NCBI GenBank assembly: GCA_002404865.1
Contig: DHKP01000028.1
Coordinates: 34,809 to 98,808, forward strand
DNA: 64,000 nucleotides
Direction: 5' to 3'
Origin: Bacillales bacterium UBA4691
Lineage (GTDB): Bacteria > Bacillota_I > Bacilli_A > RFN20 > CAG-826
In this document: positions 3,014 through 31,850 of the stretch, in pieces
Layout of the letters: each line of letters opens with the position of its first letter
How positions within the stretch are numbered: the first letter of the stretch is position 1
Position numbers and translations under genes: made by a program
The notes under the pieces: model-generated
Database searches by the model: none
What the model was told of the DNA's origin: nothing
The model's input: the letters and a program-made list of their open reading frames with translations, nothing else

Positions 3014-3018
3014 CATCT

Positions 3019-3795
3019 ATGGAAAAAGAAGCTCAAGAATTAAAAAAATGGCTTGAAAGCGCCTCTTCTTTTACTTTGCCAGACTATAAATCTTTACCGA
3101 CTGTTCCTCTATATATGGAGCAGGTCATTATGTACATTAACGATATCCTTGCCCCTCTTAGCATCGGCGAGAAGAATAAGCTCACCTCTTTCATGGTGAA
3201 CAATTACGTAAAAGCAGGCATGATAAGCGCTCCAGAAAAGAAAAAATACACAGAGGATCATTTGGGGTATTTACTCGCGATTTCTTGCTTAAAAGACACT
3301 CTTTCGATGACGGATTTATCTTTACTTATTGAGATGGATTCCCATGTTTCTAGCGACAAAAGCGTCCTTTACCGTTTCTTTGCCTCTATGACGAATAACG
3401 CGCTTCAAGAAAAAGCAAAAACCATTCTTTCAAAAATCGAATCTTACGAAAGGCGTTACGAAAAAGAAGTCGTAGCGGATGAAACCAAGGCCGAAAACGA
3501 CCTTCGCGATGCCTTAGGCCTTACGGCGTTCCGTCTAGCCATCCAATCAGAAGTGGACCAAGTGATTTCAAAGGCGATTCTAAAAGTGATCGCTGAGAAT
3601 ATGCATGGCGAAGCAGTATGGGAAGCGGTGAATAATCGCGGCGCACACGAAGTAAAACGCGAAATGAAGATCTCTTTAGCGGAATCTGAACGCATCGCGG
3701 TAGCGAAACAAAAGCAAGAGGCGGAAAAATCTAAGAAGAACAAAAAAGAAAAAGGAAAAAACATTAAAAATCAGGAGGATAAAAAGAATGATTAA
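3019..3795 (+). CDS. DUF1836-family protein with a Lys/Glu-rich tail
   Basis: The pattern LPTVPLYMEQVIMYINDIL...LTSFMVNNYVKAGMISAPEKKKYTEDHLGYLLAISCLK matches my recollection of DUF1836. The C-terminus is low-complexity K/E. Confidence 0.6.
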   Translation: MEKEAQELKKWLESASSFTLPDYKSLPTVPLYMEQVIMYINDILAPLSIGEKNKLTSFMVNNYVKAGMISAPEKKKYTEDHLGYLLAISCLKDTLSMTDLSLLIEMDSHVSSDKSVLYRFFASMTNNALQEKAKTILSKIESYERRYEKEVVADETKAENDLRDALGLTAFRLAIQSEVDQVISKAILKVIAENMHGEAVWEAVNNRGAHEVKREMKISLAESERIAVAKQKQEAEKSKKNKKEKGKNIKNQEDKKND

Positions 3796-4807
3796 AAATG
3801 TTTTGGTTACAGGTGGGCTAGGTTTTATTGGAAGCGAAACCGCGATTGAGCTCATCCAAAGCGGGTATAACCCCATCATCATCGACAATTTGTACAATGC
3901 GAAGAAATCCGTGCTTGACCGCATTGAAACGATTACTCATGTTCGCCCAAAATTCTATGAAATCGACGCGGCGAATTATCTAGACACCAAAAAGGTTTTC
4001 TTAGAGAATAAAATCGATGCTGTTATCCATTTCGCTGGCTATAAAGCGGTTGGAGAATCCGTGCAAAAACCAATCGAATATTATGAAAATAACCTTGGGA
4101 GCGCATTGAATGTCCTTCGCATTATGAAAGAGGTAGGCTCCAAAAATTTCGTTTTCTCTAGCAGTGCGACGGTATATGGGGTCCCTAAACGCGTCCCTCT
4201 AGTAGAAACTGATCCTATTGGAGAAGCGACAAATCCCTATGGAGAAACCAAAATTATGATTGAAAGGATTTTAAAGGATATTTCTTTTGCCGATCCTTCC
4301 TTCAACGTGATTCTATTAAGGTATTTTAATCCAATCGGCGCTCATCCTTCTGGACTTCTTGGTGAAGACCCGACTGGCATCCCAAATAACCTCATGCCAT
4401 ATATCACCCAAGTTGCGATTGGGAAACTTCCACGTTTAAGAGTCTTTGGCGATGATTACCCAACTAAAGATGGTACCGGCATCCGCGACTATATCCACGT
4501 CGTTGATTTAGCAAAGGGGCATGTTGCCGCGCTTAAGAAATTAGACGAAGTCCCAGGCTTAGTGATTTATAACTTGGGCACAGGAAAAGGAACAAGCGTT
4601 TTGGAACTCGTTCACGCTTTTGAAGAAGCAAACGGCGTTAAGATTCCTTATGAAATCCTTCCGCGTCGCGCAGGGGATGTTACAGAAAACTACGCCTCTT
4701 GCCAAAAAGCGGAAAAAGAGCTTCACTGGAAAGCGACGCTTACCATTGTCGATGCATGTCGCGATGCCTATAACTTCCAGAAGAAGAATCCAAACGGAAT
4801 CGAATAA
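3788..4807 (+). CDS. galE: UDP-glucose 4-epimerase
   Basis: 339 aa with a Rossmann VTGGLGFIGSE motif, SSSATVYG and a catalytic PYGETK (YxxxK). Confidence 0.9.
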   Translation: MIKNVLVTGGLGFIGSETAIELIQSGYNPIIIDNLYNAKKSVLDRIETITHVRPKFYEIDAANYLDTKKVFLENKIDAVIHFAGYKAVGESVQKPIEYYENNLGSALNVLRIMKEVGSKNFVFSSSATVYGVPKRVPLVETDPIGEATNPYGETKIMIERILKDISFADPSFNVILLRYFNPIGAHPSGLLGEDPTGIPNNLMPYITQVAIGKLPRLRVFGDDYPTKDGTGIRDYIHVVDLAKGHVAALKKLDEVPGLVIYNLGTGKGTSVLELVHAFEEANGVKIPYEILPRRAGDVTENYASCQKAEKELHWKATLTIVDACRDAYNFQKKNPNGIE

Positions 4808-13992: not shown

Positions 13993-14020
13993 TTGAAAAA
14001 CGCGGGGGGGGGGTTAAAAT
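13993..14020 (+). promoter_or_regulatory. Putative SigA-type promoter of the GH3/surface-protein operon with a G10 tract in the spacer
   Basis: TTGAAA (13993-13998), 16-nt spacer aacgcGGGGGGGGGGt, TAAAAT (14015-14020). An AAAGGA RBS and the ATG at 14053 lie downstream. Confidence 0.55.
14004..14013 (+). repeat. Homopolymeric G10 tract
   Basis: Read directly from the sequence. It is the longest G/C run I noticed in the window; the next is G6 at about 9704. Confidence 0.95.
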
Positions 14021-14052
14021 TTCATAAATTTGTCACAAATAGAAAGGATTGT

Positions 14053-17000
14053 ATGGACAAGAAAAAAGAAAATTTGTTTACGCGAATTTATGGTCACGTT
14101 AGCAAAGGCTGGATCATAGGACGAGCTGTGAGCTGCGCTGCAATTGCCGCCTTAATCGTTGCGATAAGCGTTGGCACTTCGATTGCAAACTCCTATTCGT
14201 CTCAGCTCACTGCTTACCTTTGCCCCCCGTTAACGGATGATTCGCAAGTTTCGCAAGCCCAAGCCGCAGGTGCTGAGCTCGCGAAAAAAGTGGAGCTTGA
14301 AGGGGCGACACTACTAAAGAATGATAACAACACCCTTCCACTTTCAAAAACTGACGATAAAAAAGTCAATGTTTTCGGATTCGGATCTGTCGATTGGTCG
14401 TATGGCGGAATTGGAAACGGATGTTCTGGACAAGTGAGACCAGAAAACGATGACCCAAATTCCGTGACTGATTTAATGAAGGCTTTAAATCGATACGGCA
14501 TTCAAGCAAATAGCGAATTGCAAAATTTTTATCGTGAATGGTGTGAGCCGGTTAACCTCATTAAGGATCCAAATAACACCGATAGAAATTTTGCTGCGAC
14601 TCTTCGAGAACCTCCAATGAGCCAATACTCTAGTGAGCTATTAGAAAGAGCGAAAGAATATTCTAATGTGGCGATTGCCGTTATTTCTCGCACTTGTTTT
14701 GAAAATACCGACCTTCCTAACACTCAAAGAAAAGCTGGTCCTGGAATGAACGAGGACAATACTCGCCATTATCTAGAAATCTCAACGGAAGAAGAGGAAA
14801 TGCTTAGATATTTGGGTTCTAACTACGAGAAGGTCGTTGTTCTAATCAATGCTGGTAACATGATGGAACTTGGCTTTATGGATTCTATTCCTGGGCTTGA
14901 CGCTTGCGTTTATGTCGGCGTTACGGGAACGCAAGCCGCTGCTTCGATTCCTGCTTTACTTTGGGGTGATACTCCTTTCTCTGGGAAATTAGTGGATACC
15001 GTTCCTTATTCCTTCGACGATATGACTTCGAGCTATTCGAATTGGTTTGGCGCCGTTAGTTACGCAAACGGCGGGCAAGGTGTCGACTATGTAGAAGGAA
15101 TCTATGTAGGCTATAAATGGTTTGAAACCGCCGATAAAGAAGGTGTATGGACAAACGTTGATAATAGTGCCGCCTATGGCGAAAAGGCAAAAGGATATTA
15201 CGGGGTTGTCCAATATCCTTTCGGGTACGGCTTATCTTACACAAATTTCGATTGGAAAATCGTTAAGTCTACGCCTGAAGCTGGTGTCTCAATTGATGAA
15301 AACACAAAATTCAAGATTGATGTTGAAGTTACTAATACCGGCAATTTTGCTGGCAAAGACGTCGTAGAAGCTTACGTTACTTTGCCTTACACAAAAGGCG
15401 GGATTGAAAAATCTTATGTCTCATTAGTTGGCTATGCAAAAACCGAGCTTTTGGCGCCTGGGACCTCTCAAACGGTCACCATTGACGTCGATGCTTATGA
15501 TTTCCTCTCTTACGATTGCTATGACAAAAATAGCAATGGTTTCAAAGGTTATGAATTAGAGAGCGGCGATTATGAAATCAAACTCATGACCGATAGCCAT
15601 AACATCAAGAAAATCGGAGATGAAGATGCCGTTTTGACATTCAAAGTCGATGACACAATCAAATGCGAAACCGATAAATACACCGGTGCAACGGTGAAAA
15701 ACCTTTTCACTGGCGACGAGGCAATTGATGGATTCTCCATCGATGGGATTGAGTCCGACTACAACGCGAATATTCCGTTTATGTCAAGAAATGACTTTCA
15801 GGCTGGCTATTCTTTCCCGAAAAGGACGAATGAAGTCGCTAAAAGATCTTTATCCGATAGAGAGAATAATGCGCTTACTTATTCCGCTAATAAGGCTAAA
15901 GAATGGGATAACGCCACGACTGATGCTTTTGGAAACGAAGTGAATCAAACTAAGCCGACATGGGGCGCAAGTACTAACCTTAAGGTTGCTGAAAACGGCG
16001 TTCCTACTGAACTAGGTTTAGCATTAGGGCAAGACTATAACGACCCTAGATGGGAGGATGTGCTCAATCAAGTGAAATATAGCGAAGCCGTTTCTTTGGT
16101 TTCCAAGTCCCCATCTGGGAATAAAGCGATTGGTTCTATCGGTAAACCGAGGCTTTTAGCTTACGATTCTATGATTCAGATCAAGGGGTTTGCTGGTAAG
16201 CCAAGAGGCACTGGTAACCCATCGACAACGATTTTAGCGATGAGCTATAACAAAAACCTTGCTTATCAATATGCGACAAATTTTGCGAATGAAATGAACG
16301 CGATTGGCGTTCAAGCCGTTTTTGGCCCTGGCATCAATCTCCACCGTTCTCCCTTTGGTGGCAGAAACTTCGAATATTTCTCAGAAGACACCTATATGAC
16401 TGCCGATATGGCTCGCATCATCGTTCGCGGATTGCAGAATTATGGTTGTAGCGTAGAGATGAAGCATCTTGTTTTAAACGAACAAGAGTCTTGGCGTTAT
16501 GGGTGTGGCACTTGGCTCACGGAACAGGCGCTTAGAGAAACGTATTTGCGTCCTTTCCAAAGAGTAACCGAAGAAGAAAACCTTTCTGGGGTGATGACTG
16601 CCTTTAACCGCATTGGCTCATTGTGGGTTGGCGGAAGCACTGCTCTTATCACCGGCGTTTTAAGAAACGAATGGGGTTTTAAAGGCTATATCGATACTGA
16701 CTGGACTGAAGGTATTACTGGTACTCCTGATGAACAACTTCGCGCTGGTGGAGAAATCGGAATGGCTCAGGCTTTAGGGGAATCTATCGCTTACGATTAT
16801 GGGGAAGGGGCCGCCTCTGGTCGCTTGCAAAATCGTTTTAGAGATGCTGTCAAGCATGTTTTGTATGGCTGGCTCTCTCCAAAATATCAAGCGAGCGTTT
16901 ATAAACCGGGCGAAGGTGAGAACATCACAACGTCCTTCACCATTCAATCTTGGCAGTGGTGGCAACCATCAATCATTGCGTTAAATTGCCTTGTGTATTT

Positions 17001-17100
17001 CGGTTGCGCGATTTGGTTAGTTTGCTTATTTATGCCATCTAAAAAATACCAAAACAATGATCCGACTGAACCAAATAACGGTAAGAAGGAGAATGCATAA
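14053..17100 (+). CDS. Glycoside hydrolase family 3 beta-glycosidase, permuted domain order, with N- and C-terminal TM anchors
   Basis: An N-terminal TM (IIGRAVSCAAIAALIVAISVG) is followed by the GH3 C-domain (ATLLKNDNNTLPL, LLWGDTPFSGKLVDTVP). Next comes the FnIII-like domain (YPFGYGLSYTNFDW, VTNTGNFAGKDVVEAYV), then the GH3 N-domain (RSPFGGRNFEYFSEDTYM, KHLVLNEQE, VMTAFNRIG, GYIDTDW). A C-terminal TM (IIALNCLVYFGCAIWLVCLF) closes the protein. The start was set to the ATG with an RBS. Confidence 0.85.
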   Translation: MDKKKENLFTRIYGHVSKGWIIGRAVSCAAIAALIVAISVGTSIANSYSSQLTAYLCPPLTDDSQVSQAQAAGAELAKKVELEGATLLKNDNNTLPLSKTDDKKVNVFGFGSVDWSYGGIGNGCSGQVRPENDDPNSVTDLMKALNRYGIQANSELQNFYREWCEPVNLIKDPNNTDRNFAATLREPPMSQYSSELLERAKEYSNVAIAVISRTCFENTDLPNTQRKAGPGMNEDNTRHYLEISTEEEEMLRYLGSNYEKVVVLINAGNMMELGFMDSIPGLDACVYVGVTGTQAAASIPALLWGDTPFSGKLVDTVPYSFDDMTSSYSNWFGAVSYANGGQGVDYVEGIYVGYKWFETADKEGVWTNVDNSAAYGEKAKGYYGVVQYPFGYGLSYTNFDWKIVKSTPEAGVSIDENTKFKIDVEVTNTGNFAGKDVVEAYVTLPYTKGGIEKSYVSLVGYAKTELLAPGTSQTVTIDVDAYDFLSYDCYDKNSNGFKGYELESGDYEIKLMTDSHNIKKIGDEDAVLTFKVDDTIKCETDKYTGATVKNLFTGDEAIDGFSIDGIESDYNANIPFMSRNDFQAGYSFPKRTNEVAKRSLSDRENNALTYSANKAKEWDNATTDAFGNEVNQTKPTWGASTNLKVAENGVPTELGLALGQDYNDPRWEDVLNQVKYSEAVSLVSKSPSGNKAIGSIGKPRLLAYDSMIQIKGFAGKPRGTGNPSTTILAMSYNKNLAYQYATNFANEMNAIGVQAVFGPGINLHRSPFGGRNFEYFSEDTYMTADMARIIVRGLQNYGCSVEMKHLVLNEQESWRYGCGTWLTEQALRETYLRPFQRVTEEENLSGVMTAFNRIGSLWVGGSTALITGVLRNEWGFKGYIDTDWTEGITGTPDEQLRAGGEIGMAQALGESIAYDYGEGAASGRLQNRFRDAVKHVLYGWLSPKYQASVYKPGEGENITTSFTIQSWQWWQPSIIALNCLVYFGCAIWLVCLFMPSKKYQNNDPTEPNNGKKENA

Positions 17101-17102
17101 TT

Positions 17103-20100
17103 ATGAAAGAGAAAAATAAAAAGTTATCTTTGATCAAAGGCCTATCCATTGGCGCTTTGAGTGTTGCGTTATTGGCGACTGTTGGCACAGTCTTCAGCGT
17201 CTCTTATTCAAGCTGGCAAAGCTATTACGAAACGATGGTCAAAGAAAAAGAGCAATATGAAAAAGAACACGCTCCAGAAGTGACTACGATGAAAGGCATT
17301 TCCGTCAAAATTAAAGACGGAGTTGGCTTCTATAAAAACGGAAAGGCGAAAGCAATCAAATCGAATTTCGTGGTTGAAGGCCTATACACAATCGGTAACG
17401 AAGTCAATCAACGCGATTACACAGAAGAGCTTTCCGATTATACGATTGAAGCGCCGGAAGACTTTACGGAAAAGGGTGGAGACGTTGTCTTCCATTATCT
17501 GAAGCAAGAGGCGGAAGTCGATGAAAACGGCAATGAGAAAAAGGACGAAGAAGGTAACGTAATCCTTAAGACGGTTTATGATTTCACGGAAACCATCACG
17601 ATTGATTTGGTTGATGTGAAACCGGCCCTAGTATCTATCACTCATAATCCTTACATTGTGGCTTACGCAGAAGGAGACCGGTTTAATCGCGATGGCTTAG
17701 CCGCAGATATCATCAATAACGATGGTTCGACATATGCGGAGAACGTTTCTCTATCTTTACTATCATTCCCAACGAACCGTTTGACACTAGAAACCACAAG
17801 TGTAAAAGTCGGTTTCAAGTTTGGAGAGAGTGACGAGGATGTTGCTTATGGCGAAATCCCCGTAAAAGTGATGCCAAAAGACGAATTTACTAACGGAGAA
17901 TTAGAATCCTTCACTATTGAAGGAGACAATGTCCTTGAAGCTGGCTCTTCCTTAAATAGTTATAAGCCCTTAGTCTATGGAACCTATTCTAGCGGTAATC
18001 GGATTCTACTTTCTGAAAGCCAATATAAATTAAGCGGATTAACGGGCGATGCCGAATTTGGGAAAAATTACTTTATTACGATTGCTTCTACTGAGAACCC
18101 CAATATCATTTCCCGGGTTTCTTTGAAAACGATGAAGAATTTGTCAACTAGCGAAGCAACCGTTAGCGGCGCTACAAAATATGAAGGGTATGTCAAAGAT
18201 TTCGACAACAATGACTATATCGAATTCGCTTATAACTCTGAGAAAGAAGAAGTGGTTAAATTCATCCTTGATATGTCGAATGGTTTCTTTGAGTTTGCGA
18301 ATAACAAGTTTGTTACCAAAGGCATCGATTTCAGCGACTTCGCTTATATTTCGATTAACGGCAACATCAAAGATACTTCCTTTACCTTCTTAGGAGGGGG
18401 CGCCTTCGATTACTTATCGGATGCGTATGCTAATTATCAAAAAGTGGAATTAGGCGCCTATAGAATAAAAAAGGGAGAAAACAAAATCCGCGTTACTTTC
18501 AAAGAAAGCAACACAGGTAAAACCTCCGCTTTCGGCGAATATGTCGCAGGTGCGATTTCGAAACTCACGATCACTCCTAATTCAAGCTCGCAAGAACATT
18601 CTATTTTCGGCGAATATTTTAACGAAAACGCTAATCCGACTCTCTCCATCAGCCAAAACACAACTTGGAACAATGATTTGGCTTGGGTTTACGCTTCTAC
18701 TAGCGATGGCGAATACACTTATTTCTATTCGTGCAAACCAGGCAGTAGCAATGTTTCAATCATTAAATATGACTTGAATTCAAATCGTGTTGTAGCGAGT
18801 TCTGCTTTCTTTACTTTACTCAATGAAGACCATACGCCTTTGTTTATTAAGGATGGCTATATCTACACCACAAATAATGACGGCATGTTCTTGCGCCTAC
18901 CGATTTCATTCATTGGCTTTGGCACAGCGAAATTCGAAGTTTTGCCAAAACTTGCATTTGAAAATGTCGCCGATAATAAGAAGATAAAATCCGCCTATTT
19001 CAATCAAAGTACAAGACAATACGCTCTTCTACTTGATAGCGGCCTAAGCTATTTTGATGCGAACGGTAAGCATTTGTATGGTGCCAAATCGTTTAAAAAT
19101 GGCGTGAAGGTCACTGGTGACGATAGTTATCTTTATGTGTTTACGAATAAGAGCAATGGTGCGATTTCTCCTTCTATCCAAATTTATAATTGGGCAGGCG
19201 AACCAATAAAAACCATTAACCCAACAAACACAATCGAAACGATGGGAATAGAAAAAGAGAAGAAAGGCAGCACAAATGTCCAATCCATTGTTGCCATGAA
19301 CGGAAACCTATATTTCACGATGGTTCGTTGGTCGGGTGGCAACAATTCAAGCGTATACAAAATTACGGCTGCCGGTGAAAGCGGGGCGTCTGAATCAGTA
19401 GAACGCTTGGGCTTATACGAATATATCTCTTCTTGCACCCAAAAAGACGTTTCCCCAAAATTCAATTCTTCCCTTTTCTCCGATAAAGTGGTGCAAAGCC
19501 AAATGGATATGTACGCTCATGGCATTTGCTCGGACGAAGAAAATCTCTACATTACGACAAATGTTGTATCAGGAGATACTGTAGTGAAAAAATTTAGCCT
19601 CGCTACAGGCGAATACTTGGGCAAAACGGCATCATTCAAAAGAAAAGAAATATGGGCGAATTCCGATTACCTTATGTACAAAGATGGCTATGTCTACGTA
19701 TTCTCTGATGATGGCGTTAGACGTGTCAACGCTAGTGATATCACTGTCGATAACGCGCCTTCTTTTGAAACAAACGCCCTTACGATTGAAGGTATCGATG
19801 GGGCAAAAGCAGGCGCCTACAATGCAACCGTCAACAAGATGGCGATTATGGCAAACGGCAAGCTCAATATTATTGGTGGCAAATCGCTAAAGGTCGAGAA
19901 ATCCGTTTCTGCTTCAAGCGGCTTAGGAATGGCTAGCGACGCGAATTATATTTACGTCTTCTTTGAGGAGAAGGCGGTGGGTGTGACTGCAAAATTCTCC
20001 GTTTATGATTGGTCCGGGAATTTGATTAAGGCAAATCAAGAAATCAAAGGCATCTCTAGTGAAGTCATAACAGCAAGCAACAATGTTCAAGGAATGGCCA

Positions 20101-20192
20101 TGGTTAATGGCGAATGCTATTTCATGGTCAGCCGTTGGGATGTTAAGAGCCAAATCGCAAAAGTTACTTTCGACACATCTATTCTTGGCTAA
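17103..20192 (+). CDS. Large TM-anchored surface protein: Ig-like repeats, a CBM-like region and a duplicated beta-rich C-terminal module; function unknown
   Basis: 1029 aa with an N-terminal signal-anchor LSIGALSVALLATVGTVFSV. Starts 2 nt after the GH3 stop and has an AAGGAG RBS. Carries recurrent xYxYVF/YFTMVRW strand motifs. Confidence 0.8.
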   Translation: MKEKNKKLSLIKGLSIGALSVALLATVGTVFSVSYSSWQSYYETMVKEKEQYEKEHAPEVTTMKGISVKIKDGVGFYKNGKAKAIKSNFVVEGLYTIGNEVNQRDYTEELSDYTIEAPEDFTEKGGDVVFHYLKQEAEVDENGNEKKDEEGNVILKTVYDFTETITIDLVDVKPALVSITHNPYIVAYAEGDRFNRDGLAADIINNDGSTYAENVSLSLLSFPTNRLTLETTSVKVGFKFGESDEDVAYGEIPVKVMPKDEFTNGELESFTIEGDNVLEAGSSLNSYKPLVYGTYSSGNRILLSESQYKLSGLTGDAEFGKNYFITIASTENPNIISRVSLKTMKNLSTSEATVSGATKYEGYVKDFDNNDYIEFAYNSEKEEVVKFILDMSNGFFEFANNKFVTKGIDFSDFAYISINGNIKDTSFTFLGGGAFDYLSDAYANYQKVELGAYRIKKGENKIRVTFKESNTGKTSAFGEYVAGAISKLTITPNSSSQEHSIFGEYFNENANPTLSISQNTTWNNDLAWVYASTSDGEYTYFYSCKPGSSNVSIIKYDLNSNRVVASSAFFTLLNEDHTPLFIKDGYIYTTNNDGMFLRLPISFIGFGTAKFEVLPKLAFENVADNKKIKSAYFNQSTRQYALLLDSGLSYFDANGKHLYGAKSFKNGVKVTGDDSYLYVFTNKSNGAISPSIQIYNWAGEPIKTINPTNTIETMGIEKEKKGSTNVQSIVAMNGNLYFTMVRWSGGNNSSVYKITAAGESGASESVERLGLYEYISSCTQKDVSPKFNSSLFSDKVVQSQMDMYAHGICSDEENLYITTNVVSGDTVVKKFSLATGEYLGKTASFKRKEIWANSDYLMYKDGYVYVFSDDGVRRVNASDITVDNAPSFETNALTIEGIDGAKAGAYNATVNKMAIMANGKLNIIGGKSLKVEKSVSASSGLGMASDANYIYVFFEEKAVGVTAKFSVYDWSGNLIKANQEIKGISSEVITASNNVQGMAMVNGECYFMVSRWDVKSQIAKVTFDTSILG

Positions 20193-23353: not shown

Positions 23354-24199
23354 ATGAGTAAAATAGGTGCCATGAAAAGCGAAAAGATTAATTTTGATGG
23401 GCTCATGAATTGTCGTGATTTAGGGGGATTCACTGGCCTAAATAATAAGAAAACGGTTTATAAGAAAGTCTATCGGAGCGACTCCCTCGACCGTCTTACA
23501 AAGAAGGACGTTGATATTCTCTCTAAGGAGCTTCATGTTCGTTACGATATCGATTTAAGAGCCCCTTTAGAAAGCGTTATTTTTCCTGATACGAAGATTC
23601 CGGGCGCCGAATATTTGTCTCTTCCTACCCAAGGGCGAGATTTTATCGTGAATAATGAAAATCATAAACCCTACGATTTAGGCGATATTAACTTGAATCG
23701 GAACGTTAATTTTTTGTTCCATTGGGACAAAAATGGATCGAGTTTAGAAGCCATGAAAAGGAATTATCGAGCAAGAATCATTGATGAAGAAGCAAAACGC
23801 AGTTACGCAAAATTCTTCTCTTTGCTTGCGAATTTAGAAGATGGGGCGGTACTTTTCCATTGCCATGATGGGAAAGATAGAACTGGGGTTGTGACGATGC
23901 TTTATTTAGGGATACTTGGAGTATCTAGCGAAGATATCTTAGAGGATTATCTAGCCACGAATATTTACGTAAAAAAGAAAATTGAGGCAAGGAAAAAGTA
24001 TTTCGATGAAGCCATACACTTATCGAAGAGCGATCCGATGTATGAATCTTTACTGCTTCTTACGGGTGTCCATAAAAGCTGGCTACTTGAAGCGATGGAT
24101 GAAGTGAATAAGCTTGGTGGTTATGAAGAATACCTTCTTCATGAGGCGAATGTGAGTAAAGAAACGATCGAGCGTGTCCGCAATAAATATCTCCAATAA
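23354..24199 (+). CDS. Cysteine-dependent (tyrosine/dual-specificity-like) phosphatase
   Basis: CX5R P-loop HCHDGKDRTG and an N-terminal NCRDLGG motif. Confidence 0.8.
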   Translation: MSKIGAMKSEKINFDGLMNCRDLGGFTGLNNKKTVYKKVYRSDSLDRLTKKDVDILSKELHVRYDIDLRAPLESVIFPDTKIPGAEYLSLPTQGRDFIVNNENHKPYDLGDINLNRNVNFLFHWDKNGSSLEAMKRNYRARIIDEEAKRSYAKFFSLLANLEDGAVLFHCHDGKDRTGVVTMLYLGILGVSSEDILEDYLATNIYVKKKIEARKKYFDEAIHLSKSDPMYESLLLLTGVHKSWLLEAMDEVNKLGGYEEYLLHEANVSKETIERVRNKYLQ

Positions 24200-25157: not shown

Positions 25158-25244
25158 GATTGAGAACCTCCAAGTTCCAAAGAATATTATTCCTTTCTCT
25201 CACTTTCTTTGCAACTCTATCGACTTACTTCTAAAATAAATCGT

Positions 25245-25940
25245 ATGGATTTTAGTGGTTGGGAAAAACTTTCTCTTGTCGATTACGATGACCGTATCGC
25301 GACAACTCTATTTGTAGCGGGCTGCAATTTGCGTTGCCCGTTTTGTCATAATAGCGAGCTTGTATTGCATCCAAAGAATAATCCTACGATTTCTTGGGAA
25401 GAGATAATGGAATATCTTGAGCGGAGAAAAGGCGTGCTAGATGCAGTAGTTATCACAGGCGGAGAGCCGACACTGATGAATGACCTCATCGAGAAGATGC
25501 AAGATATTAAAAAACTCGGCTATTTAATTAAATTGGATACCAATGGCACAAATCCAGATTTATTGATGGATTTATCTAATCTAGGGTTAGTGGACTATAT
25601 TGCCATGGATATTAAGAATTCTTTGCCAAAATATGGCGTTACCTCTGGGAAGCCATTGCTTGACACTTCTAAGATAGAAGAATCGATTCGCTTTTTGCTT
25701 AATGGCGTGATCGATTATGAATTCCGAACCACAATCATTGATGAATTCCATACTAGTTTAGATATGGAACGAATCGGGCAATTGATTGAAGGGGCAAAAC
25801 GTTATTACCTTCAACGCTATATCGATAATGAGTATTGCATTGAGCATGGCTATCATGAAGTTTCAAAAGAAAAGGCTCTTGTTTTCAAAGCAATCGTAAG
25901 CAAATACGTTAAACAAGTATCTTTGCGCGGCTATGAATAA
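25245..25940 (+). CDS. nrdG: Anaerobic ribonucleoside-triphosphate reductase activating protein (radical SAM)
   Basis: CNLRCPFCHN cluster and VITGGEPTL. The ATG at 25245 is preferred over the TTG at 25209, but the start is uncertain. Confidence 0.85.
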   Translation: MDFSGWEKLSLVDYDDRIATTLFVAGCNLRCPFCHNSELVLHPKNNPTISWEEIMEYLERRKGVLDAVVITGGEPTLMNDLIEKMQDIKKLGYLIKLDTNGTNPDLLMDLSNLGLVDYIAMDIKNSLPKYGVTSGKPLLDTSKIEESIRFLLNGVIDYEFRTTIIDEFHTSLDMERIGQLIEGAKRYYLQRYIDNEYCIEHGYHEVSKEKALVFKAIVSKYVKQVSLRGYE

Positions 25941-25969
25941 AAAATAACGCTAGCTGACCTAGCGTTATT
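25941..25969. terminator. Bidirectional hairpin between nrdG and the trxB-like gene
   Basis: AAATAACGCTAG-CTGAC-CTAGCGTTATTT. It overlaps the stop codon of the minus-strand gene. Confidence 0.7.
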
Positions 25970-26879
25970 TGATGGAATATAAGTATTTATTTGCGCTTAA
26001 GCTCGCAATCGCGCCATCTCCGCATGCGGTAGTGAGTTGACGCACTTTTTTATCGGTGCAATCGCCAGCGGCAAATAGCCCTTTCGTCTTTGTGCTCTTG
26101 TCTTCATCCACTTTGATGAAACCGTGATTCAATTCGACTAAATTTGAGAATCTAACGTTATCAGGAACTTGCCCAATCGCAACAAACGCGGCTTTTGCTG
26201 GGATTTCTATCATTTCTTTGCTTATCGTATTTTCATAGCGGACTGCCGTTAAGGAAGTCCCATCCCCGATAAATTCTTTTGAATTCATATTGTGATAAAC
26301 GGTTACGTTCTTTAAAGAAAGAAGCGCACTAACGAGAACTTCATCCGCGAAAAAGCGATCGAATAAAGTAACGATATTGACATGGGAACAAATGCTAGCG
26401 AGCATCAAGGCGTATTGGAGAGCGCTATTGGCGTCCCCGATGACGGTTACGTCTTGATTGCTATAGAAGGCCCCGTCGCATACGGCGCAATAGGAAATTC
26501 CGTGCCCTAAATATTTGTCTTCGCCCTCGATATTCAAATGACGATGTTTGACGCCTGTTGCGATAATGACGGCCTTTGCCTTGTATTCGGCATATTGGCC
26601 TTTAATGATAAAGGTATCGCCTTCTTTTTGAATGGATAACGCTTCATCGAGTTCGAAAGCCCCGCCTAAAGCGCTATATTGCTCAAACATATTATTTGAG
26701 AGTTCTAGCCCGCTGATGGATGCAATGCTTGGGAAATTCTCAACGCGAGGAGAATCTGCGATTTGGCCTCCAATCGCTTCTTTTTCGAGCAAGGTAACGC
26801 TTCTGCCTGCTCTAAGAGCATAAAGACCTGCCGTTAAAGCAGCAGGTCCTCCACCGATGATAATGATATCAGGCGACAT
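25965..26879 (-). CDS. Thioredoxin reductase-like flavoprotein with degenerate NADPH-binding motifs
   Basis: FAD fold IIIIGGGPAALTAG and redox CAVCDG. The usual GGGDSA is GDANSA and HRRxxFR is FDRFFAD. The start was set to MSPDIIII, overlapping the nrdD 3' end by 11 nt. Confidence 0.8.
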   Translation of the reverse strand: MSPDIIIIGGGPAALTAGLYALRAGRSVTLLEKEAIGGQIADSPRVENFPSIASISGLELSNNMFEQYSALGGAFELDEALSIQKEGDTFIIKGQYAEYKAKAVIIATGVKHRHLNIEGEDKYLGHGISYCAVCDGAFYSNQDVTVIGDANSALQYALMLASICSHVNIVTLFDRFFADEVLVSALLSLKNVTVYHNMNSKEFIGDGTSLTAVRYENTISKEMIEIPAKAAFVAIGQVPDNVRFSNLVELNHGFIKVDEDKSTKTKGLFAAGDCTDKKVRQLTTACGDGAIASLSANKYLYSIK

Positions 26880-29256
26880 GTCCGCCTTTGACTTTCTCGA
26901 TGTATCCGCGGATGAGAGAAGCATTCTCATACACGTCATAGCTATCGCCGTTCGGCACGATTAACGTTGGGGCTTTTGTGACACCAAATGCCAAGGTGGT
27001 TTCTTTATTGCTCATCGCATCGATGTTTTGGTAATGAATACCTTCTTTATCAAGGAGCATTTTCGCCATCTTGCAGTTTGGGCAAGTCGCAGAAGTGAAT
27101 AACATTGGCTCAGTTACTTTTGGAAGAGCATGTTCATGCTTTTCAGCGCATGTGCAGTGGTCGCCTTCTTCACTATGGAAGATGCTTGTGGATGGATCAT
27201 AGGTCTTACGATCTTTGAATTCTTGGCTCTTCCCAGCATTCCAGTTTTTCACAGGACGGTAGTAACCAGTGATACGGCTATAGACTTCAGTCTCTTTCCC
27301 ACATACTGGGCATTTCCAGACTTCCCCAGCGAGATACCCATGGTCTGGGCAGATGGAATAAGTCGGAGACATCGTGTAATAAGGGAGCTTGTAATTTTCC
27401 GCAATCTTACGAACGAGTTTCATGCAGCTTTCCCAATTTGGAAGGCGTTGACCCAAGAAAGCGTGGAAGACGGTTCCTGATGTATAGAGAGTTTGGAATC
27501 GATCTTCGATATCCAAAGCTTGGAAGATATCGCTCGTAAATCCGACAGGAAGGTGAGAGCTATTGGTGTAATAAGGGACTTCCCCAGCTTTTCCAGCTGT
27601 GATGATGTCTGGATAACGTTCACGGTCATGTTTCGCTAAGCGATAAGAGGTTGATTCGGCTGGTGTTGCCTCGAGGTTGAAGAGGTCGCCGTATTTTTCT
27701 TGGTAATCGCTTAAGCGTGTTCTCATGTGGTTAAGAACTTCGACGGTGAAATCTTGCGCGTCTTTATGAGAGAGATCGTCTTTGAGCCAACGGGCATTGA
27801 GGCAAGCTTCGTTCATACCGACTAGACCAATCGTGGAGAAGTGGTTCTTGAATGTCCCTAAGTAATGTTTGGTATACGGGTATAATCCCGCTTCAAGTAA
27901 GGTTGTGACGGTCTTGCGTTTGATATCTAAGCTTCTCGCCGCAATATCCATCATATGGTCAAGACGAGCGTAGAAATCCGCTTTATCAGTGGCTAGATAA
28001 GCGATGCGTGGCATATTGATGGTAACAACACCGATAGAACCAGTCGATTCGCCACTTCCGAAGAAGCCGCCGGATTTTTTGCGGAGCTCACGTAAATCGA
28101 GACGTAAGCGGCAGCACATAGAGCGAACATCGCTTGGCTTCATATCACTATTGATATAGTTAGAGAAGTAAGGGGTGCCGTATTTAGCAGTCATCGTGAA
28201 GAGGAGACGGTTATTTTCCGTATCGCTCCAGTCGAAATCTTTGGTGATGGAGTAAGTTGGGATTGGGTATTGGAAGCCGCGCCCATTCGCGTCGCCTTCG
28301 ATCATGACTTCGATGAAGGCCTTGTTGATCATCGCCATTTCTTTCTTGCAATCGCCATAGGTGAAGTCCATTGGCTTTCCACCGACAAGCGCTGGAAGAT
28401 TTGCCATATCATCAGGAACGGTCCAATCTAATGTGACGTTGGTGAATGGCGCTTGTGTGCCCCAACGAGACGGAGTGTTCACGCCATAAATAAAGCTTTG
28501 GATGCATTGCTTGACTTGTTTGTAATCAAGATTGTCCGCTTTGACGAAAGGGGCTAAGTAGGTATCAAAGCTTGAGAAAGCTTGAGCACCTGCCCATTCG
28601 TTTTGCATGATGCCCAAGAAGTTCACCATTTGATTGCAAAGCGTCATTAAGTGACGAGCTGGAGTGGAAGTGATTTTGCCAGTGACTCCACCTAAGCCTT
28701 GTTGAATGAGTTGCTTTAGTGACCACCCAGCGCAATAGCCAGTTAGCATGCTTAAATCGTGAATGTGAATATCGGCATTGCGGTGAGCATCCGCGATTTC
28801 TTTATCATAAACTTGGGAGAGCCAGTAGTTAGCGGTGACGGCGCCAGAATTAGAAAGGATTAAGCCGCCGACAGAATAGGTGACTGTGCTATTTTCTTTA
28901 ACGCGCCAGTCGTTAAGGCGAAGATAACTATCGACAACTGCGGCATAGTTAAGTTCGGTTTTCTTGATGTCGCGGAGTTGAGCGTGTTTATTGCGATAAT
29001 CCATATAAGAACGAGCGACATCGACGTATTGAGCTTGGATCAATACGGTTTCAACGCTGTCTTGGATATCTTCTACCGCGATGATTTGATCTTTGACCTT
29101 TTTCGCAAAATCGGCGGTAACACGAAGTGCTAAAAGTTCAAGAATGTTTGGGGTGATGGTAACGTGCTCTTGATCGAAAGCACGGCCCATAGCAGCCTCA
29201 ATTTTCTTAATGTCAAAGTCGACGATTGAATTGTCTCTTTTCTTAACGCGCAACAT
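26869..29256 (-). CDS. nrdD: Anaerobic (class III) ribonucleoside-triphosphate reductase fused to a C-terminal thioredoxin/glutaredoxin-like domain
   Basis: 795 aa with an ATP-cone N-terminus, Zn ribbon CPDHG..CPVCG and glycyl-radical RITGYYRPV. About 110 extra residues follow, containing MLFTSATCPNCKMAK...KAPTLIVPNG. Confidence 0.92.
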   Translation of the reverse strand: MLRVKKRDNSIVDFDIKKIEAAMGRAFDQEHVTITPNILELLALRVTADFAKKVKDQIIAVEDIQDSVETVLIQAQYVDVARSYMDYRNKHAQLRDIKKTELNYAAVVDSYLRLNDWRVKENSTVTYSVGGLILSNSGAVTANYWLSQVYDKEIADAHRNADIHIHDLSMLTGYCAGWSLKQLIQQGLGGVTGKITSTPARHLMTLCNQMVNFLGIMQNEWAGAQAFSSFDTYLAPFVKADNLDYKQVKQCIQSFIYGVNTPSRWGTQAPFTNVTLDWTVPDDMANLPALVGGKPMDFTYGDCKKEMAMINKAFIEVMIEGDANGRGFQYPIPTYSITKDFDWSDTENNRLLFTMTAKYGTPYFSNYINSDMKPSDVRSMCCRLRLDLRELRKKSGGFFGSGESTGSIGVVTINMPRIAYLATDKADFYARLDHMMDIAARSLDIKRKTVTTLLEAGLYPYTKHYLGTFKNHFSTIGLVGMNEACLNARWLKDDLSHKDAQDFTVEVLNHMRTRLSDYQEKYGDLFNLEATPAESTSYRLAKHDRERYPDIITAGKAGEVPYYTNSSHLPVGFTSDIFQALDIEDRFQTLYTSGTVFHAFLGQRLPNWESCMKLVRKIAENYKLPYYTMSPTYSICPDHGYLAGEVWKCPVCGKETEVYSRITGYYRPVKNWNAGKSQEFKDRKTYDPSTSIFHSEEGDHCTCAEKHEHALPKVTEPMLFTSATCPNCKMAKMLLDKEGIHYQNIDAMSNKETTLAFGVTKAPTLIVPNGDSYDVYENASLIRGYIEKVKGGHVA

Positions 29257-29397
29257 AACATAGTCCTCCTGAAATTTGATGTGGGTTGGGGTTAGAAAGC
29301 CATAGGGTCTTAGCTTTGAAGAACCCTAGCTACAACCATTCTATACTACGAACAGAGTAAGACGCTTCTCATATGCTCTATTCGCCCTGCGCAAGAT

Positions 29398-29425
29398 ATC
29401 ATACCGAGCAAAATTCTAATTTCAA
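29398..29425 (-). promoter_or_regulatory. Putative nrdD promoter (TTGAAA-16 nt-TATGAT), implying a leader of about 135 nt
   Basis: Hexamers read on the minus strand. No experimental support. Confidence 0.35.
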
Positions 29426-29762
29426 TTATCAAAAAGACTCATCATGTGTAAGAAAACTTTTTGCTTAGGCGACGTACTCTTTTTTCTAAAGAAAAGTCGC
29501 GGTTTTGCGCCGAATTTTGAAACCCTATTTTTGGAAGAAGAAAGTCAATATCGATTTATAGCAAACTATACACTGTCTAAAGAAAGCAAAAAGTATTCGG
29601 AAGGAGTCTAAGAAAACAATTTTAATTGTAAAGATTCTTCGTTTTGAACATGGTTTTTTGACGAACGATTGAGTTTGTCGTATTCACTTAATATATTCGG
29701 AAGAGAATAAGAAAAAAATCGTAGTATATTTATTTAGATTAAAAAAGGAGAATTGTTTTTTC

Positions 29763-30717: not shown

Positions 30718-30746
30718 AGCTCGTATCATTTGTGGAGGGGTATAAT

Positions 30747-31850
30747 ATGATTAGGAATTTACATTTCGAAGGAATTGAAAATTTTAGAGATTTAGGAGGC
30801 TATGAAACTCCTTATGGCCATACTCATTCTGGCGTGATTTATCGAAGTGGCTCTTTAACTAACGCGACCGACGCTGATTTAGACAAGATGGTTTCTTTAG
30901 GCATCAAAACGATTATTGATCTACGCGACCAAAATAGCCCTGTAACAAAAGTGGACCGTGTGAAAAACGATTCTCGTTTTCTGACGATTGAATGCTCCGT
31001 GAATGGAAACGGAAGGATTCCTGTGGATTACGATGATGGGGTTGCTAGCTATTTAGAAATGCTAGAAGATCCTCGCCAAGCAAGGAAAATCCTTTATTCC
31101 ATCATGAATTCTCCAAAGCCTCTTTTAATTCATTGCATGGCGGGGAAAGACCGAACAGGCGTCTTTTCTTCTTTGATTTTGCTCGCTAATGGCGTTACTG
31201 TCGATGATGTTAATGAAAACTATATGGAGTCTTTCCCGCTTCTAGCGCCCTCTACTAGGAAATTAAAACAAGAAGATCCTTCTTTCCCGCTTTTTCCTTT
31301 GACGCCCAATCAATTTTTATTTTTAGATTTCTATGACGCTTTCCTTGCTAGATGGGGAAGCGTAGATGATTATTTAGAGTGGCTGCTTTTCACAGACGAT
31401 GAAATCGAACTCTTCCATAACTTATTAGGAAAACAAGAGAAAAGCTGTGGGGCGGTTGTTTTCCATAATAATGACATCTTGGTGGAACATATGGCCATGG
31501 GGCACTATAGCATCCCTAAAGGCCATGTGGAAATTATCGACCCAAACGATGAAGCGACTGCCCTTCGCGAAATTAAAGAAGAGACGGGTCTAGATGTGCA
31601 GCTAATGAAGAGCGGGACTTATTCCATTTATTATTCGCCGAAAGTCGGTGTAGCCAAAGAAGTTAAGTTTTTTATCGCGGATGCTTCTAAGGCAAAAACA
31701 ACTCCTCAAAAAGAAGAAGTAAGCGATATTTATTGGCTTTCTCCGAATGACGCGATTCGTTGTATGTCTCATGATAGCGATCGAAAAGTCATCCAATGGG
31801 CTTGCGAGGAACGCGCTAGAATTCTTTATCACGATAAGAAAAATCAATAG
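30747..31850 (+). CDS. Fusion protein: cysteine phosphatase (CX5R) domain plus Nudix hydrolase domain
   Basis: N-terminal half has NFRDLGGY and HCMAGKDRTG. The C-terminal half has the Nudix box GHVEIIDPNDEATALREIKEETGLDV. GGAGGGG RBS lies before the ATG at 30747. Confidence 0.85.
   Translation: MIRNLHFEGIENFRDLGGYETPYGHTHSGVIYRSGSLTNATDADLDKMVSLGIKTIIDLRDQNSPVTKVDRVKNDSRFLTIECSVNGNGRIPVDYDDGVASYLEMLEDPRQARKILYSIMNSPKPLLIHCMAGKDRTGVFSSLILLANGVTVDDVNENYMESFPLLAPSTRKLKQEDPSFPLFPLTPNQFLFLDFYDAFLARWGSVDDYLEWLLFTDDEIELFHNLLGKQEKSCGAVVFHNNDILVEHMAMGHYSIPKGHVEIIDPNDEATALREIKEETGLDVQLMKSGTYSIYYSPKVGVAKEVKFFIADASKAKTTPQKEEVSDIYWLSPNDAIRCMSHDSDRKVIQWACEERARILYHDKKNQ

Follow-up and report, generated by a model that had tools for sequence, protein, structure and literature searches.

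A thioredoxin reductase-like flavoprotein with a remodelled NADPH site as the probable dedicated reductase of a redoxin-fused class III ribonucleotide reductase

The gene overlapping the 3' end of nrdD in Bacillales bacterium UBA4691 encodes a flavoprotein of the thioredoxin reductase (TrxR) type, which would act as the dedicated disulfide reductase of the host class III ribonucleotide reductase (RNR) and for which NADPH is probably not the electron source. The window, meaning the whole stretch of 64,000 nt that was analyzed, covers positions 34,809-98,808 on the forward strand of contig DHKP01000028.1 (assembly GCA_002404865.1), and all coordinates are given relative to it; nrdD, the TrxR-like gene and the features within them lie on the reverse strand. 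These two genes are paired in several hundred or more species-level genomes of Firmicutes from the gut and rumen.

The TrxR-like coding sequence (25965..26879; 304 aa plus stop) was delimited by its open reading frame, Pfam, an AlphaFold2 (AF2) model and Foldseek, and its product falls in clade A of an NrdD-linked TrxR family. The N-terminus of the protein is MSPDIIIIGGGPAALTAG, and the ATG at 26879 sits within the final codons of nrdD (...GGA CAT GTC GCC TGA); the nrdD stop and the TrxR-like start overlap by 11 nt (ATGTCGCCTGA, 26869..26879), as the original prediction had read them, with a weak Shine-Dalgarno sequence (AAAGGCGGA) immediately upstream of the start. The identical 304 aa product has been called on at least 23 metagenome contigs by public gene callers. 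A longer open reading frame of 324 aa from 26939 was rejected, as homologues and public gene calls begin at MSPD. The 795 aa product of nrdD (26869..29256) consists of an ATP-cone, a class III RNR core and a C-terminal glutaredoxin-like domain by Pfam and NF006126. Converging on the TrxR-like gene from the other side is the nrdG activase gene (25209..25940, forward strand; 198.7 bits to TIGR02495, NrdG2), which probably starts with the ATG at 25245 and then encodes 231 aa, in agreement with the gene callers. Between the convergent stop codons, a scan of the window sequence revealed a 12-bp hairpin (25942..25970) that is likely a bidirectional terminator closing the transcript of nrdD and the TrxR-like gene. 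The best sigma-70-like promoter match upstream of nrdD (29398..29425, reverse strand), which agrees with the consensus at 10/12 positions and is a consensus match only, falls within the ~500-nt intergenic leader of nrdD, and no promoter or terminator was found between the two genes in the window scan. nrdD and the reductase would share one transcript and be translationally coupled. Across the 64-kb window no second TrxR, thioredoxin (WCGPC) or ferredoxin motif was found, and no Rfam family reached its gathering score anywhere in it; a search of viral_contigs, made as a test for phage carriage of the module, found no relatives.

The NrdD encoded here resembles the redoxin-dependent class III RNRs. 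Its Pfam matches are the ATP-cone, NRDD (PF13597, 654 bits) and Glutaredoxin (PF00462, 30.5 bits with a cutoff of 22.9), and NF006126 matches it with 1121 bits. The glycyl-radical motif RITGYYR (aa 661-667; 27256..27276) is placed by the window sequence and alignment to 8p23, the Zn-binding cysteine motifs CPDHG and CPVCG are present, and the finger loop reads MCCR (aa 380-383; 28108..28119), the double-cysteine type, as do those of all 67 scorable linked NrdDs. A third finger-loop cysteine (xCCR) marks the type of class III RNR tied to redoxin-dependent reduction (PMC9669993, PMC4493059); with the core, the glycyl-radical motif and the xCCR loop, the sequence assigns this protein to that type (NrdD2/NrdD3 in the sense of Wei et al.). 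NrdD2 and NrdD3 are told apart by an active-site glutamate; around the finger loop, alignment to solved NrdDs is ambiguous. The fused domain (aa 718-795; 26872..27105) is glutaredoxin/NrdH/MJ0307-like by profile matches, its best solved matches being the glutaredoxin 2klx, the MJ0307-type thioredoxin 1fo5 and the NrdH 4hs1. It is not a member of NrdH proper, scoring 20.5 bits to TIGR02194 vs a cutoff of 85.75; the active site is CPNC (27073-27084), and the domain sequence shows no motif resembling WSGFRP.

The adjacency of nrdD and a trxB-like gene holds across genomes, a point that the original prediction had proposed to check. The NrdD core with its glutaredoxin-like domain lies immediately upstream on the same strand in 73 of 80 species-representative genome loci, and two of the seven loci lacking it are truncated contigs. 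NrdD and redoxin form a single open reading frame in 70 of the 73 linked loci (CPNC in 65). In clade A, every one of the 30 evaluable loci is nrdD-linked; the spacer has a median of 4 nt and does not exceed 30 nt in 23. When all neighbours in the 80 loci were clustered, nrdG was the sole further conserved one. The reciprocal scan, starting from the NrdD C-terminus and redoxin, placed the TrxR-like gene directly downstream in 58 of 76 evaluable metagenome loci; it also gave 18 NrdD::redoxin fusions with no adjacent TrxR, so a dedicated partner is not strictly needed by the fused redoxin. In the literature searched, nothing relevant was found on an nrdD-trxB or nrdD::grx operon, a prior mention of trxB/redoxin genes beside nrdD2 by Wei et al. 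(2014) being possible.

Synteny, fusion, the MCCR loop and the spacing together give good support to a proposed dedicated relay from TrxR to the fused redoxin to NrdD. We infer that the FAD takes up the electrons and hands them to the C131/C134 disulfide, which sits on the rotating second domain, and that this in turn reduces the CPNC pair in the glutaredoxin-like domain at the NrdD C-terminus. Whenever a turnover has left the cysteine of strand beta-A joined to the additional finger-loop cysteine (MCCR), the CPNC pair would re-reduce that disulfide. That the flavoprotein would reduce a thioredoxin-fold disulfide is supported by its conserved linkage to the fused redoxin. The original prediction had put the protein together with nrdD and had it pass electrons to the NrdD-fused redoxin, and the synteny, fusion and spacing in more than 70 species genomes make this the most likely role.

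The flavoprotein itself keeps its catalytic elements, as predicted. Homologue alignment and the window sequence place the FAD-binding GxGxxG motif GGGPAALTAG (aa 9-18; 26826..26855) and the second FAD motif GLFAAGDC (aa 267-274; 26058..26081), and alignment to solved TrxRs and homologues places the redox-active disulfide CAVCDG (aa 131-136; 26472..26489); the FAD motifs and the CxxC, with both C131 and C134, are invariant in the alignment. The GDC ending of the second FAD motif is typical of the NrdD-linked TrxR family. Pfam Pyr_redox_2 (PF07992) matches with 143 bits, and TIGR01292 (TrxB) with 295.2 bits, under its equivalog cutoff of 343.45. The AF2 model (pLDDT 90.3) superimposes with a Foldseek TM of 0.90-0.92 on the TrxRs of B. 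cereus, S. aureus and T. africanus (7aaw, 4gcm, 7jyp), and a two-domain FAD/NAD(P)H-binding fold of the TrxR type is predicted with it. The protein ends in ...ANKYLYSIK, and in the alignments it does not extend beyond the C-terminus of ordinary TrxRs.

What has changed is the NADPH site. In HMMER alignment to the TrxRs 4zn0, 7aaw and 4gcm, the pyrophosphate loop GDANSA (aa 148-153; 26421..26438), followed by a clade-specific Tyr156, stands opposite GGGNSA/GGGDSA, as had been predicted, and TLFDRFF (aa 171-177) stands opposite HRRDHLK/HRRDTLR. TLFDRFFAD (aa 171-179; 26343..26369) thus takes the place of HRRDxFRAE where strand beta-2 ends, at the 2'-phosphate site; the predicted replacement of HRRxxFR is real, but the segment first assigned to it (FDRFFAD, aa 173-179) was two residues out of register, TLFDRFF being the true counterpart. 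In E. coli numbering, H175 becomes T, R176 L, R177 F and R181 F, while D178 remains D, and the 2'-phosphate-binding arginines are lost as expected. The same changes are shared by 120 homologues (55-96% identity) and by 32 genomes chosen as species representatives, and therefore do not stem from chance or from the alignment artefact that the original prediction had allowed for. Pseudogene formation or decay was rejected, since no stretch of the protein is better conserved than the altered region, and the replacement residues are under strong purifying selection.

The clade-A-specific conserved positions are D149, Y156, T171, L172, F173, F177 and D179 (with F65), and the invariant ones among them are nearly all within the adenosine/2'-phosphate subsite; D149 and Y156 are ~97-100% conserved, and no new clade-A-specific conserved residues appear outside the nucleotide pocket when the clades are compared. 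In clade A, G148, N151 and A153 are invariant, position 152 is S or T and position 150 is A or G, such that the loop is G-D-A-N-S-A in the window and G-D-G-N-[ST]-A in many other members, with an invariant and unprecedented D149. Outside the specificity subsite the pocket is as in the canonical clade-C relatives; three basic residues are lost and one acidic residue gained, the median pI still being acidic at 5.06. The subsite would accordingly read as re-specified by G->D in the glycine loop, E->Y in helix alpha-A and HRR..R -> TLF..F, and from this it is proposed that NADPH is no longer the donor.

In the tree, clades A, B and C form one NrdD-linked TrxR clade with 100% bootstrap, apart from six reference TrxRs and from the housekeeping TrxBs of Firmicutes, with FFTR, TaTR, DvTRi and AhpF compared outside the tree and alignment by bit scores and Foldseek ranks. 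Clade A (TLFD with GD..Y) is monophyletic (97% bootstrap) and nested in the family beside the QNL-type clade B and clade C, which has canonical HRR motifs; clade-C relatives, in the equivalent gene position, keep HRRDxFR. Placement among ordinary NTRs, which the original prediction had named as the outcome that would speak against it, was not seen. Of the best 150 50%-identity representatives, 59 end strand beta-2 in a non-canonical motif outside the A, B and C classes, and donor diversity in the TrxR superfamily is therefore under-explored.

As the donor for clade A, NADH comes close to an even chance and is ranked as somewhat more likely than ferredoxin or flavodoxin; what remains beside these two falls to residual NADPH use or another donor. 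In favour of NADH, the changes are confined to the specificity subsite, with the rest of the pocket and G148, N151, S/T152 and A153 retained. VTLFD is in register with VEMFD of the NADH-specific lipoamide dehydrogenase of E. coli, where L-F-D matches M-F-D; Thr171 aligns with the Glu of VEMFD, however, so the acidic ribose-binding residue at the end of beta-2 is absent. In AhpF, the E of LLEF is the acidic residue that binds the adenosine ribose. The presence of Thr171 at this canonical position in clade A counts against NADH, and Asp149 in the pyrophosphate-binding loop could repel a dinucleotide. Among TrxRs that lack HRR, NADH has repeatedly proved to be the donor, as with those of T. acidophilum, T. 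maritima and D. vulgaris (TR3) (PMC6262447, PMC5627308).

A less probable, though still tenable, reading is that the enzyme is pyridine-nucleotide-independent and is fed single electrons by reduced ferredoxin or flavodoxin, passing them from FAD to the CxxC, the fused redoxin and NrdD; the carrier would possibly be the same low-potential one that reduces the [4Fe-4S] cluster of NrdG. The lost 2'-phosphate arginines, the invariant Asp in the pyrophosphate loop and the missing acidic residue at the canonical NADH ribose position all point this way, and degradation of the pyrophosphate motifs is a mark of those TrxRs that use ferredoxin or F420 (PMC5627308). Conservation in the protein peaks in the former NADPH region, which presumably therefore binds something, and the host lineages are strict gut anaerobes. 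There is also precedent for ferredoxin-driven class III RNR turnover in the work of Wei et al. (2015), as relayed in PMC9176816. On this reading the flavoprotein would be an analogue of the ferredoxin:disulfide reductase/NrdH-like system of M. barkeri, convergent with clostridial FFTR.

Kinship to FFTR does not extend beyond the shared superfamily, however. The original prediction had called for alignment with NTR and FFTR, and the scores are 108.6 bits to 6gna, 107 to 6gnc and 129 to 5j60 vs 178-210 for NTRs; FFTR structures are absent from the best 50 Foldseek neighbours, and among the nearest relatives are NrdD-linked TrxRs that still bear HRR motifs. The protein is of ordinary TrxR length and lacks the C-terminal tail that cyanobacterial FFTR needs for ferredoxin binding (PMC8154056, PMC12796991), and its predicted conformation is compact and NTR-like in the AF2 model and Foldseek, unlike FFTR. 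The absence of new clade-A-specific conserved residues outside the nucleotide pocket also argues against a ferredoxin site, and the loss of three basic residues with the gain of an acidic one would be unfavourable for docking of an acidic ferredoxin there. When open reading frames of at least 45 aa in the 80 genome loci were screened for CxxCxxCxxxC-type motifs and all neighbours were clustered, neither ferredoxin nor flavodoxin genes emerged as conserved neighbours; small ferredoxin-like frames occur in three loci at scattered positions, and the 64-kb window contains no gene for a ferredoxin or a flavodoxin. The predicted ferredoxin/flavodoxin donor is thus not borne out, since it has the motif loss behind it but neither FFTR kinship nor a conserved neighbour gene. 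Nor is the path from ferredoxin to NrdD undescribed, as had been supposed: what PMC9176816 and PMC5704485 relay of Wei et al. (2015) describes it for Methanosarcina barkeri with an FTR-type iron-sulfur enzyme, so a dedicated path is not new as a concept, although a flavoprotein version would be.

It is rather unlikely that the enzyme has some other donor, be it another small-molecule hydride donor or another protein partner as with D. vulgaris TRi, or that it has none and the remodelled pocket serves instead in docking or regulation, for instance with NrdD itself. Such a reading is encouraged by DvTRi, which uses neither NADH nor NADPH and whose donor is still not known (PMC5627308). The 59 representatives with motifs outside the three classes are also in keeping with it, and the aromatic cluster of Y156, F173, F176 and F177 could bind a different aromatic ligand; however, F420 is not expected in gut Firmicutes, the operon has no extra conserved gene in the 80 genome loci, and no specific alternative has positive evidence. 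Finally, an ordinary housekeeping TrxR that still uses NADPH (or NADPH and NADH) and lies next to nrdD by chance is very improbable: the intact fold and catalytic elements, the HRRDxFR of clade-C relatives in the matching gene position and the single TrxB reported for Bacilli (PMC10880999), which may make this the sole TrxB of the cell, are outweighed by the clade-wide conserved replacement of all four 2'-phosphate basic residues (H175/R176/R177/R181 to T/L/F/F), the score of 295 vs 343 bits under the NCBIfam TrxB equivalog cutoff, the nrdD::grx linkage in 30/30 evaluable clade-A loci with start-stop overlaps, unlike a chance adjacency, and the phylogenetic separation from Firmicutes housekeeping TrxBs.

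Returning to the proposed relay from TrxR through the fused redoxin to NrdD, the closest described systems share parts of it. In the N. bacilliformis-type enzyme (NrdD2), reduction is by thioredoxin, TrxR and NADPH, according to what PMC9669993, PMC4493059 and PMC9176816 relay of Wei et al. (2014). The two have in common an extra finger-loop cysteine (MCCR here, SCCR there), re-reduction by a redoxin and reduction of the redoxin by a low-Mr flavoprotein TrxR; they differ in that the redoxin here is a glutaredoxin/NrdH-like domain fused to NrdD with the TrxR in the same operon, and the TrxR belongs to its own NrdD-linked family, of which clade A has no NADPH 2'-phosphate site. In M. barkeri NrdD3, again as far as Wei et al. 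(2015) is relayed in PMC9176816, PMC5704485 and PMC6262447, electrons pass from ferredoxin to an FTR-like, 4Fe-4S ferredoxin:disulfide reductase, an NrdH-like redoxin and NrdD; a dedicated RNR-linked pair of reductase and redoxin likewise feeds a class III RNR there, independently of formate and NADPH, but the reductase is an unrelated iron-sulfur enzyme of the FTR type, the redoxin is a separate protein and the system is archaeal.

Among flavoproteins, FFTR/DTR (6gna/6gnc of C. acetobutylicum, 5j60/6xtf of G. violaceus) share the TrxR fold, FAD, CxxC and loss of the NADPH motifs, but are distant (108 and 129 bits vs 210 for an NTR), and the motif loss in clade A appears to have arisen independently, within the NrdD-linked family. 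The NADH-preferring TrxRs of T. maritima, T. acidophilum and D. vulgaris (TR3) are likewise HRR-less and low-Mr, and that of T. maritima reduces a glutaredoxin-like protein, as proposed here (PMC5627308, PMC6262447); sister clade B shares VQNLxxLT with the Thermosipho africanus TrxR 7jyp. Unlike these enzymes, for none of which an nrdD linkage is reported, clade A has the replacement set TLFD.FF with GD.N.A..Y and an altered glycine loop. D. vulgaris TRi (5nii), another TrxR paralogue from anaerobes, likewise has its nucleotide site remodelled (PMC5627308), but it carries a TQ/NGK motif, is a weak match at 101 bits and has no reported nrdD linkage. Glutaredoxin fusions to RNR subunits are known as Grx::NrdB in Facklamia ignava and as one grx::nrdD in Lachnospiraceae bacterium TWA4 (PMC6187632), where the redoxin domain similarly serves as an in-cis reductant on an RNR component; the fusion described here differs in being C-terminal on NrdD, widespread (70/73 loci) and paired with a dedicated TrxR and not glutathione.

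Re-reduction of class III RNR has been worked out experimentally for few enzymes, with formate, thioredoxin/TrxR/NADPH and the methanogen ferredoxin system. The locus would be a self-contained, three-part solution made up of NrdD, a fused redoxin and its own TrxR, for which no description was found in the literature searched; if the genome has no second, housekeeping TrxB, the enzyme would also serve general thiol metabolism. It is less probable, yet worth considering, that flavin TrxRs independent of pyridine nucleotides evolved a second time in clade A, as a family of their own that wires reduced ferredoxin or flavodoxin directly through the NrdD-fused redoxin into anaerobic dNTP synthesis in many uncultured gut Bacilli and Clostridia. 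Were this so, FFTR-like chemistry would have originated twice by convergence, and the supply of DNA precursors would be tied to the low-potential electron pool, not to NAD(P)H. If clade A is instead NADH-dependent, it would provide a new NADH fingerprint for TrxRs and a caution against naming every motif-less TrxB an FFTR, as in PMC10880999. One orthologous gene position carries three nucleotide-site designs (canonical HRR, QNL, and TLFD with GD..Y), a natural experiment in coenzyme re-specification, and the donor question is therefore directly testable with three closely related proteins.

The TrxR-like gene (25965-26879, minus strand) lies directly after nrdD (26869-29256, minus strand; 795 aa) in the ORF calls, and the predicted 11-nt overlap is borne out, the reductase ATG lying 11 nt before the end of the nrdD stop (...GGA CAT GTC GCC TGA). 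A 324-aa form starting at 26939 is possible and was rejected, since homologues and public gene calls, the latter on at least 23 metagenome contigs, begin at MSPD. Scanning the nrdD/TrxR-like junction in the window revealed no promoter-like or terminator-like site in between, and the top promoter match is found ~150 nt upstream of nrdD. It falls within a ~500-nt leader (29257-29762) that separates nrdD from a divergent MscL-like gene, has its sole good promoter-like site at 29398-29425 and gave no Rfam match; the full 64-kb window (41.6% G+C) likewise contains no tRNA, rRNA, riboswitch or other Rfam family at gathering score. nrdG (25209/25245-25940, plus strand) is convergent with the reductase gene, and their stops are separated by a perfect 12-bp hairpin (25942-25970), bordered by U/A-rich sequence on either strand, that is likely a bidirectional terminator. 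Elsewhere in the window, a glycoside hydrolase family 3 protein of ~1035 aa (13993-17100; Pfam families of public gene calls) is directly followed by a 1029-aa secreted-looking protein (17103-20192) with no Pfam match at all, and two Y_phosphatase3-family tyrosine-phosphatase-like genes occur within 8 kb (30732-31850 and 23354-24199), one carrying a fused C-terminal NUDIX hydrolase domain.

The 304-aa product is homologous to low-Mr thioredoxin reductases (Pfam Pyr_redox_2, 143 bits), with M. mazei NTR 4zn0 as its top solved match (3.9e-61). Its AlphaFold2 model (mean pLDDT 90.3) compares with the B. cereus, S. aureus and T. africanus TrxRs at TM 0.90-0.92, and it scores 295 bits against the NCBIfam TrxB equivalog, under the 343-bit cutoff. 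As the original prediction held, the FAD fold and redox disulfide are kept (GGGPAALTAG, CAVCDG and also GLFAAGDC are all found), and GDANSA stands in place of GGGxSA, facing GGGNSA/GGGDSA in HMMER alignments to solved TrxRs. The replacement of the second NADPH motif by FDRFFAD is also real, but its register was off by two residues: TLFDRFF is what faces HRRDHLK/HRRDTLR, and the 2'-phosphate arginines are indeed lost, with H175, R176, R177 and R181 (E. coli numbering) being T, L, F and F. All 120 of its nearest database matches (55-96% identity; those with a named source come from Bacilli and Erysipelotrichaceae MAGs) carry IGDAN[ST]ALQYA and TLFDxFF[AG]D, and G148, D149, N151, A153, L154, Q155, Y156, T171, L172, F176 and F177 are invariant in a 28-sequence alignment. 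This block is the most conserved stretch of the protein, with N[ST]ALQYA[IL]xL being picked as search pattern by the locus finder; judged from these alignments, the altered nucleotide site is a conserved redesign, and decay is ruled out.

The reductase-nrdD feature is real and conserved. With one genome searched per species, at least 596 relatives turned up, of which the best 80 were analysed. In 73 of these, an NrdD core with a redoxin domain is directly upstream on the same strand; of the remaining seven, two are truncated at a contig end and in five nrdD is genuinely missing. NrdD and redoxin form a single ORF in 70 of the 73 loci, CPNC is present in 65, and the MCCR finger loop is found in all 67 scorable NrdDs. 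nrdG occurs in 51 loci, and no other gene recurs among the neighbours. In class A, the clade of the window protein, every evaluable locus (30/30) is nrdD-linked, with a median spacer of 4 nt and start-stop overlap in 7. The adjacency noted in the window extends across genomes, and hardly any reductase of this family is encoded away from nrdD. Reciprocally, searching metagenomes with the NrdD C-terminus plus redoxin located a TrxR-like gene directly downstream in 58 of 76 evaluable loci. The other 18 fusions, which are more distant, have no adjacent TrxR and instead, directly upstream of nrdD, a gene (metagenome loci L139-L163; e.g. L144:1047-2204, L162:1051-2205) for a ~385-aa protein that joins an N-terminal MarR-type winged helix to a radical-SAM NrdG-like activase (Pfam MarR_2, Radical_SAM and Fer4_12), an unusual fusion of a DNA-binding domain to an activase; the NrdD::redoxin fusion is thus wider than the reductase linkage. 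At L153:2208-4576, nrdD is in two overlapping ORFs (2208-3323 and 3320-4576) broken just before the MCCR finger loop, which may be a frameshift, pseudogene or assembly error.

Three nucleotide-site designs are found in the family. Class A (32 loci including that of the window) has GD[AG]N[ST]ALQYA and TLFDxFF; class B (40 loci, chiefly Oscillospiraceae and Acutalibacteraceae; e.g. L043:7001-7894, within the genome loci L028-L080) has canonical GGGNSA, but [IV]QNLxxxTGE replaces HRRDxFRAE; class C (8 loci) has canonical GGG[ND][ST]A and HRRDxFR. NrdD::redoxin operons whose TrxR has full canonical NADPH motifs (L029, L038, L048, L049, L058, L064 and L077) provide HRR-bearing enzymes that are natural controls for biochemical comparison. 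Neighbour joining over 295 columns, with 40 bootstraps, groups the three classes in one clade (100% support) that excludes the six reference TrxRs (E. coli, S. aureus, B. cereus, D. radiodurans, M. mazei and T. africanus); class A comes out as monophyletic (97%) and class C as basal or paraphyletic. The simplest reading is that an NrdD-dedicated TrxR of NADPH type came first and that its coenzyme site was re-specified on at least two occasions. Class B has T. africanus TrxR 7jyp as its top solved match (2e-71), with VQNLPYLT common to both, yet the two do not group in the tree, so that class B may have reached an NADH-type site convergently; a related enzyme, the T. maritima TrxR, has NADH as its preferred donor and a glutaredoxin-like protein as substrate (PMC5627308). 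Among the 150 best representatives at 50% clustering, 15 have the GD...A..Y signature with more varied beta-2 ends (TLTD, TLTE, SLEH), and a further 59 have non-canonical beta-2-end motifs outside the three classes, such as NRNNIF, QQFDHF, SLYDNF and NKNLEF. HRR loss as such is common in this superfamily, and this variety suggests much unexplored donor-site diversity among TrxR homologues.

Pfam and NCBIfam profiles divide NrdD into an ATP-cone, a class III core (PF13597, 654 bits; NF006126, 1121 bits) and a C-terminal glutaredoxin-like domain (PF00462, 30.5 bits; CPNC at aa 725-728), the solved structures closest to the latter being glutaredoxin 2klx, the MJ0307-type thioredoxin 1fo5 and NrdH redoxins. 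A relay from TrxR through the fused redoxin to NrdD is strongly supported by comparative genomics and probably operates: electrons would pass from the donor to FAD and C131/C134 of the reductase, then to CPNC and on to the NrdD cysteine pair of strand beta-A and the finger loop, with the shared transcript coupling NrdD and reductase stoichiometrically. Redoxin-dependent class III RNRs are already known, NrdD2 using Trx/TrxR/NADPH and NrdD3 using ferredoxin, FDR and an NrdH-like redoxin (PMC9176816, PMC4493059), as are Grx fusions to RNR subunits, including one noted grx::nrdD (PMC6187632), and TrxRs with altered donor sites (PMC5627308, PMC8154056, PMC10880999). The literature searched gives no account of a widespread nrdD::redoxin-trxR(-nrdG) operon, with earlier mention of the linkage possible in primary RNR/FFTR papers, nor of a distinct NrdD-linked TrxR family, nor of the three nucleotide-site designs, notably GD..A..Y/TLFD.FF.

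The positions conserved in class A and unlike B, C and references (D149, Y156, T171, L172, F173, F177, D179, plus F65) map to the adenosine/2'-phosphate subsite and essentially nothing else; class A has gained neither a further conserved surface nor a tail at its C-terminus, and median pI is 5.06, 4.64 and 4.80 in A, B and C. Such a pattern is typical of a coenzyme-specificity change, and NADH is tentatively proposed as the donor. In alignment, VTLFD falls in register with VEMFD of the NADH-specific E. coli lipoamide dehydrogenase, and position 150 is A or G with G148, N151, S/T152 and A153 kept. Changes of R to M, K to F and H to D were reportedly among those by which Scrutton, Berry and Perham (1990) turned glutathione reductase towards NADH. 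Also in favour, NADH is the donor of three other HRR-less TrxRs: the T. acidophilum enzyme, originally described as independent of pyridine nucleotides, the T. maritima enzyme, and TR3 of D. vulgaris (PMC6262447, PMC5627308). Against NADH, the window protein has Thr where EMFD has the ribose-binding Glu, and we know of no precedent for the invariant Asp149 in the pyrophosphate loop, which might repel a dinucleotide.

Degraded pyrophosphate motifs mark ferredoxin- and F420-dependent enzymes (PMC5627308), which counts against NADH, and ferredoxin or flavodoxin is the main alternative donor, though less likely than not; no ferredoxin or flavodoxin gene recurs among the neighbours in the 80 loci. 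The ferredoxin-to-NrdD path originally predicted is supported by comparative genomics in its relay part, while its ferredoxin part is unproven and slightly less likely than NADH. Also against NADH, D. vulgaris TRi demonstrates that neither nucleotide need serve a TrxR (PMC5627308); some other donor is unlikely. The 2'-phosphate arginines are gone, and retained use of NADPH is highly improbable. The clostridial ferredoxin-linked TrxRs, cited at the outset for their similarly degenerate motifs, are not its close kin: clostridial FFTRs score 107-109 bits and a cyanobacterial FFTR 129 bits against the window protein, compared to 178-210 bits for ordinary NTRs, its top 50 structural neighbours (Foldseek) include no FFTR, and its closest relatives include HRR-bearing enzymes, which together place it outside the FFTR family. 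If the window protein is ferredoxin-dependent, the trait would have arisen by convergence with FFTR.
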